DNA from: a virus
Lineage: Duplodnaviria; Heunggongvirae; Uroviricota; Caudoviricetes
Direction: 5' to 3' (one strand)
Length of the DNA: 11,433 nt
IMG/VR virus record: IMGVR_UViG_2537561709_000005
Positions 9,001 to 11,433 of the stretch are shown here, piece after piece. Made by a program: the position numbers. How positions within the stretch are numbered: position 1 is the stretch's first letter; each line of letters opens with the position of its first letter.

Positions 9001-11433
9001 AAACATACTCTTCATCCGGATCCGGCAGTTCCCATACCAGCAGATAATTCATCAGCGTCCGCTGCAACTCGTTTTTATTTCCTTCACGCAGAGACTGAGC
9101 TTTAGTCTTCGCTCCTGTAACAGGTTCAATGTCATAAACAATCATCGGTGGCGAACAGAATGATTCTGCCTGCAACGTACTTTCGGCACTGAACACACGT
9201 CGTCCGGACGTCAGAAACGCCTCCTGTGGCGTTGAGGGAAACTCCTGCTTCATTTCCTCACGCTGTTCAGTTTCCTTATTGATGTACCACTGCTTCTGTT
9301 CATCAGTAAGCGTGATGTTCATTGCCTTCTCAACCGCAGAAAAATACGTCATTTTTTCCCGTGACAGCTTCAGCCCGCTTTCCGGCACTCTGGCGCTGTA
9401 TTTAGGATCCTGCCACCAGGCGTAAAAATGGAATTTATAATCCTGTGCCGTCAGCAATAAGCCTGATGCAGTGATCTCCTGTGCTCGGTTACTCATCTCG
9501 TAAAAATCACCACCCACGCCTTCAGCAGTGGACTCATCAAAAATAATGCATTCATCAGAGACGGCATTAAGCGTACCGGTTCGCAGTTCTTTCGCCTTAG
9601 CCGGATATTTCGCGCAAATTTTGCCGTGCTCTGAGATATGCAGGCGCTGCACCGTACCTGAACGGAATGAGGTTGCCACCTGGATACTCGAGCCGTGACC
9701 AAACAGGATATAGCCACCGCTGGCACCGCTACGACGTTCAACGATGGTGAATGAGGCTCTCAGCCAGTCAGGGAGATGATCAAACGGTACAGCAATTTTT
9801 GTGCGGAAAATTTCACTGGCAGCCTGTTTATCCTGAGCGACGATCCCGCATTTGAGATGCGGAATGAATAATGCCTGGTCGAGAAGATAAATATCAATGG
9901 CTGTGGAAAATCCCAGCTGGCGCGCTTTCAGGATAATATTTTTATTGTGCATGCTCCGGAACAACTGGCGCTGCGCCGGTCGCATTCTGAAGGTGACCAG
10001 TTCACCTTTTTCGTTCTGTATTTTGTAGAGATGATTGAGCCGCCACCAGGGATTGCTCAGTTTAGTCATGATGAACAGACGTTGTTCAGCCTCGGTCATT
10101 TCTGACGGCTCATCACATCGCGGTTCATTCTTCCGGAATGTCATCCAGTCTCCCCGAATTACTCATTTCATGCAGCGATGACACGATGTCACTGACAGGC
10201 GTAACAACGCCCCGACGCTGGCTGGTCAGAATATCGGTTTCAGCTCTGAGTTTATCTCTGGCGGCGTTGATTCTTTCCCGGTCAGCACGAAGTTTTGGTG
10301 CTGTCTCAGCCAGGACGTCCAGCGTCAGCAATGAGCGTTCAATTGACTCGATACGGGCAATATTCCGGTCAAGGGCCTGTTCAGCTTTGAGTATTTTGTC
10401 GTAAAGAGCAACACGGGTTTCCACGTCAGTTGCCTCTTCCAGGTCGGCGAACATCCCTTTAAGTGCCTTAGTTACTGAAAGTGCGCGGGCCCGGGTGAAC
10501 ACCAGTTCATCGAACAGCACCATGTCGGACGCATCATCCATGAGGTTATCTGCCTCAAGATACTTCGCATATCCACGGTGTCTTACGGCGTGGGTGTTTC
10601 GCTGAGAAAAAGCGTTTGAAGGTGGTAAAAGTCGGGAACCACGAATCCGTTTCGTTTCTGCCGAATTTGCGCAGTTTTTTTCAGAGTTTTTTGCGCATTT
10701 TTCATCGCCGGAACCCGCGTCATTGCAGGGTTCTTCATCTGAGATGTCATGATCGATTTCATGATCGGTTTTATGATCAATTTCATGATCGATTTTGCCC
10801 ATTTTTATACGGGTTCTGGCGGTGTTGTAATTAATCTTTTTCTTCCGGCACCAGTCCAGTAATGTTATTCCCGTTTCGGCATGTTCGCGTCGGAATGCCT
10901 GCTCCAGCTTTTTCCAGTCCAGCTTTGCCATGTCACGTTCTGACGTCCTGTGTTAAAAACTGATGCATAATGACCGCTGTGATTTTTCAGATTTCACACA
11001 GCAGCACCATATTTGATCGATATTTGCACAATGCGGTTGTTTTATCCGGTTTCTTCCACCACCGCACCGGACAGGCGGCTTCGCGGGAAATCGCTCCCAT
11101 CTCGTGAAAAATGAGAAAACCCGGTGTGCATCGTTTTTGATTATCCCCGCACACTCCCGCAGAGAAGTTCCCCGTCAGGGCTGTGGACATAGTTAATCCG
11201 GGAATACAATGACGATTCATCGCACCTGACATACATTAATAAATATTAACAATATGAAATTTCAACTCATTGTTTAGGGTTTGTTTAATTTTCTACACAT
11301 ACGATTCTGCGAACTTTAAAAAGCATCGGGAATAACACCATGAAAAAAATGCTACTCGCTACTGCGCTGGCCCTGCTACTGCTACTGCTACTGCTACTGC
11401 TACTGCTACTGCTACTGTTCTTCTTTTTTCTGC

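Follow-up and report, generated by a model that had tools for sequence, protein, structure and literature searches.

A candidate P1-like pac array of Dam sites inside the small-terminase gene of 933W-type phages

Introduction

What is the function of four evenly spaced Dam sites inside the gene for a small terminase subunit? The question is raised by a stretch of Caudoviricetes DNA of 11,433 nucleotides (IMG/VR record IMGVR_UViG_2537561709_000005; the window, by which we mean this whole stretch). An initial annotation, made from the sequence alone, had noted four TGATC(G/A) hexamers at exact 12-bp spacing within the putative small-terminase gene (terS; 10931..10125, minus strand) and had proposed that they form a packaging (pac) site in the style of phage P1. 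The coordinates of the hexamers and the output of Tandem Repeats Finder bear out the array itself, and the motif is identical to that of P1. Having compared the array with its counterparts in homologous genes, we consider it rather probable that the four hexamers are binding repeats for the small terminase (TerS), forming one arm (arm 1) of a P1-like pac site in 933W-type phages, and that this site is embedded in linker-coding DNA, evolves by slippage and is possibly gated by methylation.

The answer matters because phages of the 933W/Sp5 type carry the Shiga toxin (Stx) genes of enterohaemorrhagic Escherichia coli, and published accounts disagree about their mode of packaging, cos or headful. 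With a defined pac site, the start and direction of headful packaging in the prophage would be fixed, and with them the neighboring chromosomal genes that can be carried. Such a site could also be used to construct packageable plasmids or to block them, and it would make the Dam dependence of Stx-phage production testable.

The array and its place in the small terminase

The hexamers lie at 10750-10755, 10762-10767 and 10786-10791 (TGATCG) and at 10774-10779 (TGATCA), and their GATC cores start at 10751, 10763, 10775 and 10787. They belong to four 12-bp units of the form RAAAYYGATCAT that occupy 10749..10796 (terS nucleotides [nt] 136-183) and that read AAAATCGATCAT, GAAATTGATCAT, AAAACCGATCAT and GAAATCGATCAT on the coding strand, each unit, a candidate TerS-binding repeat, holding one Dam site. 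Tandem Repeats Finder describes the same region as a 12-bp unit present 4.4 times at 10743-10795. Because GATC is depleted in the window (36 found vs 50 expected) and clusters of four within 40 bp are expected only about 0.012 times by chance, the cluster in arm 1 is not a chance product. The exact 12-bp spacing is a signature of tandem duplication, and the units are not independent of one another. On the coding strand the motif is YGATCA, which occurs four times in the array, nowhere else in terS and five times in the other 10.6 kb of the window. The single four-copy arm reported in the initial annotation thus stands, as does its statement that only one other hexamer lies nearby. That hexamer, a lone TGATCG at 11014-11019, is 83 bp upstream of the terS start codon, either intergenic or in a small open reading frame (ORF; 10987..11232), and no repeat context was seen around it.

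The array is translated as K-IDHE-IDHK-TDHE-IDH-D, and all four Asp-His pairs are indeed written GAT-CAT. The initial annotation had taken this codon choice as a pointer to constraint on the DNA or to a recent tandem duplication. As a pointer to constraint it is not significant: in the neighboring genes 62% of the Asp codons are GAT, and four of four has P=0.15 if the units are treated as independent. Both halves of the proposal nevertheless survive on other grounds given below, and it is the choice between them that falls, given that the array is a copy-variable tandem repeat and probably also constrained as DNA.

An AlphaFold2 model of TerS, built on a 40-sequence alignment, places the array within the protein. 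Residues 1-45, encoded at 10797..10931 (minus strand), are predicted to form a three-helix helix-turn-helix (HTH) domain with helices at residues 6-20, 24-31 and 35-41 (predicted local distance difference test score [pLDDT] 75-87), the last of these being the putative recognition helix, YNTARTR. Residues 46-116, encoded at 10584..10796 (minus strand), have pLDDT <50, so both arm 1 and a second arm described below appear to sit in DNA that codes for a disordered linker. A confident helical hairpin follows at residues 130-238. All homologues of TerS have the same three-part build: the HTH at the N-terminus, then a low-complexity stretch that varies, then a helical C-terminal part that is conserved. 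A Foldseek search of the model against the PDB returned generic coiled coils only, none of them at E<=0.001, and gives no information, probably owing to the dominance of the long hairpin in the model. One TerS variant, P0002, which represents a cluster of 558 proteins, has ARIRIK in place of ARTRIK in the recognition helix (T40I), and the protein, including its DH array, is otherwise identical; the substitution possibly represents natural variation at the residue separating the GATC-type from the TGCGCA-type lineages described below.

Homologous genes carry motif arrays at the same position

Several lines of evidence from homologous genes bear on the function of the array. Our comparison comprises the terS DNA of some 110 loci, drawn from viral contigs, GTDB genomes, phage records and assemblies. 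Every homologue examined carries 3-8 copies of one short motif at terS nt ~130-310, just after the HTH-coding part; in the remaining 3-7 kb of each locus this motif hardly occurs. We define the family pattern accordingly as a motif array in the linker-coding part of a phrog_370 TerS gene. The pattern calls for at least three motif copies in terS nt ~100-330, rare elsewhere and matched to the type of DNA-binding domain, and arm 1, with its four, follows it. Our searches of the literature found no description of such family-wide terS linker arrays.

In prophages of GER2-type E. coli, Citrobacter, Aeromonas, Xenorhabdus and Morganella, and in some of Salmonella, the motif is TGCGCA(A). These sister arrays belong to the same protein family (phrog_370) and occupy the same slot in the gene as the window array, and those of E. 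coli share the 12-bp skeleton RAAANYG..CA with it. They differ in the central dinucleotide (CG vs AT), in the recognition helix (ARR(Y/H) vs ARTR) and in their layout, which uses several reading frames and irregular spacing of 7-14 bp where the window has a clean in-frame tandem repeat. TGCGCA is written in three frames, as xxT GCG CAx (S/N/T/A-A-Q), as xTG CGC Axx (V/L/M-R-K/N) and as TGC GCA (C-A), and most relatives code their motif in two or three frames (loci L042-L120). The copies are spaced 7, 9, 10, 12 or 14 bp apart, and 7, 10 and 14 are not multiples of three. When synonymous codons were resampled in these relatives, the encoded peptides gave 0.5-1.2 motifs where 5-7 are observed, and in most arrays none of 5000 resamples matched the observed count. 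The arrays of the relatives have therefore been selected as DNA and not as peptide. Both orientations of the motif occur in phage RothC and in locus L114, which argues that the target is duplex DNA rather than mRNA.

Relatives of the window's own type, which we call ART-type after the recognition helix, retain GATC in particular. Salmonella prophages with an ARTQIK helix carry three to five units (for example, AAAAGTGATCAA, AAAAGTGATCAT and AAAAACGATCAT) in exact 12-bp phase. Their units encode SDQK, SDHK and NDHE, peptides unlike those of the window, and YGATCA is nonetheless retained in every one. All 75 units of 18 distinct ART-type arrays contain GATCA, and positions -6, -2, -1, +5 and +6 vary. 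The initial annotation had suggested asking whether homologues conserve the GATC sites, and within the ART type they do, despite the differing Salmonella peptides. In the same lineages the slots for TGCGCA are decaying and the GATC units are not: TGGGCA stands at nt 131 in the window type, and TGCTCA, TGCGCG and TGCGAA stand in the second arm of the Salmonella genes. A possible origin of the GATC unit is visible in the GER2-type arrays, where a single in-phase TGATCA unit at nt 189 lies between TGCGCA units at 177 and 201. Given this unit and the matching skeletons of the two types (RAAARTGCGCAR vs RAAAYYGATCAT), the window array looks like an expansion of such a variant.

The motif tracks the DNA-binding domain

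We tallied the top hexamer, without choosing a motif beforehand, in 70 distinct sequences grouped by recognition helix or domain. Among 45 sequences with an ARR(Y/H)(I/L)K helix, TGCGCA or a window overlapping it ranks first in 44, whereas GATC-containing hexamers do so in 18 of the 20 with ART(R/Q)IK (the window type and the Salmonella prophages). The two AKRYI(K/T) sequences (Klebsiella phage RothC and Pectobacterium) have TGCGAA/TTCGCA. An unrelated HTH, GVTEGAIRKRAK, in Klebsiella ST16/ST512 phages (two sequences) is accompanied by five to seven copies of GTACGCA in two frames, and a third domain type, SKSTLID, seen once in Salmonella, by TCCGTC with inverted GACGGA. A strict code in which T40 would specify an AT center and R40 a CG center was considered and rejected, since P1 PacA has ARRY and yet uses TGATCR; the relation survives as a correlation within the family.

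On this basis we tentatively put forward a broader proposal, which we regard as possible although short of probable. The 933W-family small terminases (phrog_370), perhaps together with P1 PacA, would constitute a re-targetable recognition module in which a linker-coded array that evolves by slippage co-evolves with one or two helix residues, RR(Y/H) going with TGCGCA, KRY with TTCGCA and T(R/Q) with YGATCA. In the 933W/Stx lineage the motif would have changed to one that Dam can methylate, bringing methylation-gated packaging either independently of P1 or by sharing with P1. The family-wide link between helix and motif supplies a ready set of naturally occurring specificity variants with which DNA reading by small terminases could be studied.

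A spacer and a second arm

Downstream of arm 1 in terS, a 45-bp spacer (10704..10748; terS nt 184-228) separates it from arm 2 (10656..10703), which consists of four 12-bp-phased units (GAAAAATGCGCA, AAAAACTCTGAA, AAAAACTGCGCA and AATTCGGCAGAA), encodes EKCAKNSEKNCANSAE and contains intact TGCGCA at 10692-10697 and 10668-10673. Tandem Repeats Finder detects a period-12 repeat at 10666-10702. By comparison with the family, its TGCGCA copies appear to be the ancestral array motif, and arm 2 would be a remnant or second arm of the ancestral TGCGCA array. By analogy with P1, the spacer is a possible cleavage region.

Comparison with known packaging sites

The pac site of P1 is 161 bp long and contains seven TGATCA/G hexamers in two clusters, HEX4 and HEX3, with cleavage controlled by Dam methylation (PMC10028697). 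In GenBank the P1 cleavage sites, along with an IHF site, are marked within pacA, where we find hexamers at nt 194, 201, 213 and 228, at nt 324, 336 and 347, and once more at 375; P1 cuts at about nt 276-284, between HEX4 and HEX3. The window resembles this arrangement in several respects. In both, TGATC(A/G) hexamers with a Dam site form a cluster of four inside the small-terminase gene, partly coded as Asp-His (IIDH, GDH and DDH are among the P1 peptides), and in both the cluster comes shortly after the HTH-coding part: HEX4 spans pacA nt 194-234 after HTH residues ~2-44, and arm 1 spans terS nt 136-183, with its hexamers at nt 141-182, directly after residues 1-45. Both phages also carry a Dam-type methylase of their own (dmt in P1; dam in VT2-Sakai and 933W, H0105/L0094). 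Cronobacter phage JK004 encodes a PacA 70% identical to that of P1 in which the hexamers are kept and the peptides are changed to NDQK and RDQK.

The proteins themselves show a limited likeness. The N-terminus of PacA (…FNLNPNTARRYLR…) aligns with the HTH of the window's TerS family, weakly by BLASTP (E=0.009) and by hhalign with E=2e-4 over 43 columns but a probability of only 45%. Window TerS matches phrog_1711, the PacA family, over residues 5-94 (E=3e-5), and PacA matches phrog_370 over residues 3-104 (E=1.9e-4). The remainder of TerS and the large terminase (TerL) of the window are unrelated to PacA and PacB. The layouts differ as well: in P1 some 90 bp separate two GATC arms (4+3), and the IHF site and the mapped cuts lie between them, whereas the window has one GATC arm of exact 12-bp tandem units, then the 45-bp spacer and then TGCGCA units.

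Other packaging sites are instructive at a greater distance. In lambda, gpNu1 binds the R elements of cosB, and in SPP1, G1P binds the pacL and pacR boxes. As in the window, several short repeats lie beside or inside the small-terminase gene; there the small terminase, an oligomer, binds them through its N-terminal HTH and so places the large subunit for a cut close by, and we propose such binding here. The proteins, motifs and repeat lengths are all different, and lambda makes cohesive ends. The pac site of the headful phage P22 likewise lies inside the small-terminase gene, and the window encodes a P22-type portal (PF16510). Unlike the window array, however, P22 pac is a single asymmetric site of ~22 bp, and gp3 of P22 is unrelated to the window TerS.

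Copy number and interrupted copies of terS

Among near-identical phages arm 1 varies from one to seven units. Most records have four; LC645447 and others have three, L037 and P0025 five, and P0001/L118 seven. The forms with one unit (P0020) and two units (P0016) are known from partial proteins only. In seven Stx2a records terS is truncated at residue 55, which we considered as a deletion at a pac end and rejected. In LC727844.1 (L002), the one of the seven inspected, the end of an IS629 element (TGAACCGCCCCGGGTTTCCTGGAG...; 2665-2720) is inserted right after the last DH unit (…GATCATGACATC), equivalent to a position just after window 10749, and the other six share its truncation point. The ends of linear records were likewise rejected as packaging ends: PV189406 ends inside terS where terL starts (the two genes overlap by 20 bp), and its start seems to have been set arbitrarily where terL begins.

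Weighing the interpretations

Under the interpretation that we favor, a TerS oligomer would bind one YGATCA unit with each N-terminal HTH domain, the units lying 12 bp apart. TerL, the presumed nuclease and motor, would then cut near arm 1, possibly in the 45-bp spacer before the TGCGCA units, and headful packaging would start there. Slippage by 12 bp would let the array expand, contract and change its motif, as it is free to do because the linker tolerates almost any peptide, and the recognition helix would change alongside. Since every unit of arm 1 is a Dam site, the methylation state may gate binding or cutting as in P1, and host Dam and phage Dam could both provide the methylation.

The main rival holds that arm 1 is a neutral tandem repeat in the coding sequence of a disordered linker, that GATC is a by-product of the common codon GAT standing before CAT, and that pac consists of the two downstream TGCGCA or lies elsewhere. 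Taken by itself, apart from the family, arm 1 could be just such a repeat: it is in perfect phase, it lies in the region of pLDDT <50, its units all use a single frame, its Asp codon is the majority one in the neighboring genes, two intact TGCGCA persist at 10668 and 10692, and its copy number is as polymorphic among near-identical phages as neutrality would allow. Neutrality would also entail that the DNA is free of constraint, and this is contradicted by the relatives, in which selection on the DNA is strong at the same slot. The Salmonella ARTQ arrays vary the peptide and never YGATCA, TGCGCA units decay in the very lineages that keep GATC, and the hexamer is the proven element of P1, where it stands beside a weakly similar HTH. 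We therefore regard neutrality as unlikely, although it retains a real share of the probability. Much less probable, in our judgment, is that the array is selected as a peptide, with Asp-His acting in TerS through metal binding or linker length. In its favor, both residues coordinate metal well, and the repeat keeps the reading frame and is translated in every case; against this, Gln replaces His in many Salmonella and JK004 units with the hexamer kept, relatives encode SAQK, SQIR or GTQ at the same slot, copy number is unconstrained and the region is predicted to be disordered. We consider this explanation very improbable.

Closely spaced GATC sites are also the target of SeqA, and the four-GATC cluster, when hemimethylated, might bind SeqA and time late-gene expression or replication instead of serving packaging. 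The depletion of GATC elsewhere in the window and the dam gene of this phage type fit such a role, and Dam is reportedly needed for stable 933W lysogeny, judging from the title of Murphy et al. 2008. Sister lineages, however, carry TGCGCA, TTCGCA, GTACGCA or TCCGTC arrays at the same slot. These are not Dam sites; what is conserved is therefore an array that fits its DNA-binding domain and not methylation, and we hold a SeqA element to be improbable.

A number of observations weigh against a P1-like pac site at arm 1. A second GATC arm was not found, the downstream arm at 10656-10703 carrying TGCGCA instead, and no match to the IHF consensus WATCAANNNNTTR with at most one mismatch exists on either strand of 10600-10960. 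With respect to the initial proposal of a P1-style pac site, then, these two features of P1 are missing, and the hexamer, its position in the gene, the weak profile matches to PacA, the arrays of the family and the YGATCA of Salmonella speak for it. The likeness to PacA, as judged from sequence, is confined to ~45-100 residues and is statistically modest, and TerL has no similarity to P1 PacB. For the window type itself the direct evidence of constraint on the DNA is weak, because all units share one frame and derive from recent tandem duplication: synonymous resampling gives 1.5 motifs where four are observed (P=0.019), with units that are not independent. A strict recognition site might not tolerate a range of one to seven copies. 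The link between domain and motif could come in part from shared ancestry and from the joint inheritance of two neighboring segments of the gene; ARTR and ARTQ lineages probably represent one event, and the TGATCR of P1 PacA with its ARRY helix means that no simple residue-to-base code applies. Finally, the full-text literature that was searched yielded neither a pac site described for 933W, Sp5 or other Stx phages nor virion-end data, and one paper calls Stx phages cos phages (PMC7566468). The 933W family has, on the other side, been classed as 'headful (933W type)' from TerL phylogeny (PMC7317114).

A headful pac site at arm 1 may also be relevant to an earlier observation. Sp5, which is of the same phage type, yields at least 1e10 packaged genomes per ml after mitomycin C (PMC2669165). 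The defective prophage Sp4 is amplified only via 'regional replication' of Sp5 and was found packaged, for which the authors credit another terminase (PMC2669165); in-situ headful packaging from the pac site of Sp5 could be an explanation.

Phage type and other features of the window

By sequence, the window corresponds to the start of the late (morphogenesis) region, with its genes on the minus strand, of a 933W/Sp5-type Shiga-toxin phage. The identification of terS rests on its ORF and translation (268 residues), on 100% identity to annotated small terminases of Stx2 phage 86, VT2phi_272, PA2 and others, and on a match to phrog_370 'terminase small subunit' (E=4e-125). In all, 222 phage records match, and identity to H0127 of VT2-Sakai is 99.6% at the protein level. 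The gene for TerL follows at 10144..8438 (minus strand; 568 residues), identified from its ORF and phrog_2 'terminase large subunit' (E=1e-53), and a P22-like portal gene at 8438..6294 (minus strand). Pfam, even at a permissive threshold, gave no family matching TerS or TerL. Together, terS, terL and portal match the packaging module of 933W/Sp5-type Stx phages, and 387 of 5426 complete E. coli genomes contain the region.

Two further repeats were observed in the window. Within 11341-11433, a bor gene starting at 11341 on the plus strand agrees with bor of VT2-Sakai up to ...CTGGCCCTGCT. Beyond this point the sequence continues with (ACTGCT)n and then TTCTTCTTTTTTCTGC, which are absent from the reference (Tandem Repeats Finder, 11350-11417); the stretch either is an assembly artefact at the contig end or reflects an expanded hexanucleotide in the part coding for the Bor signal peptide. 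In the distal gene of the window, positions 82-172 hold two tandem copies of a 45-bp unit (84% match), within which 9-bp periodicities are nested.

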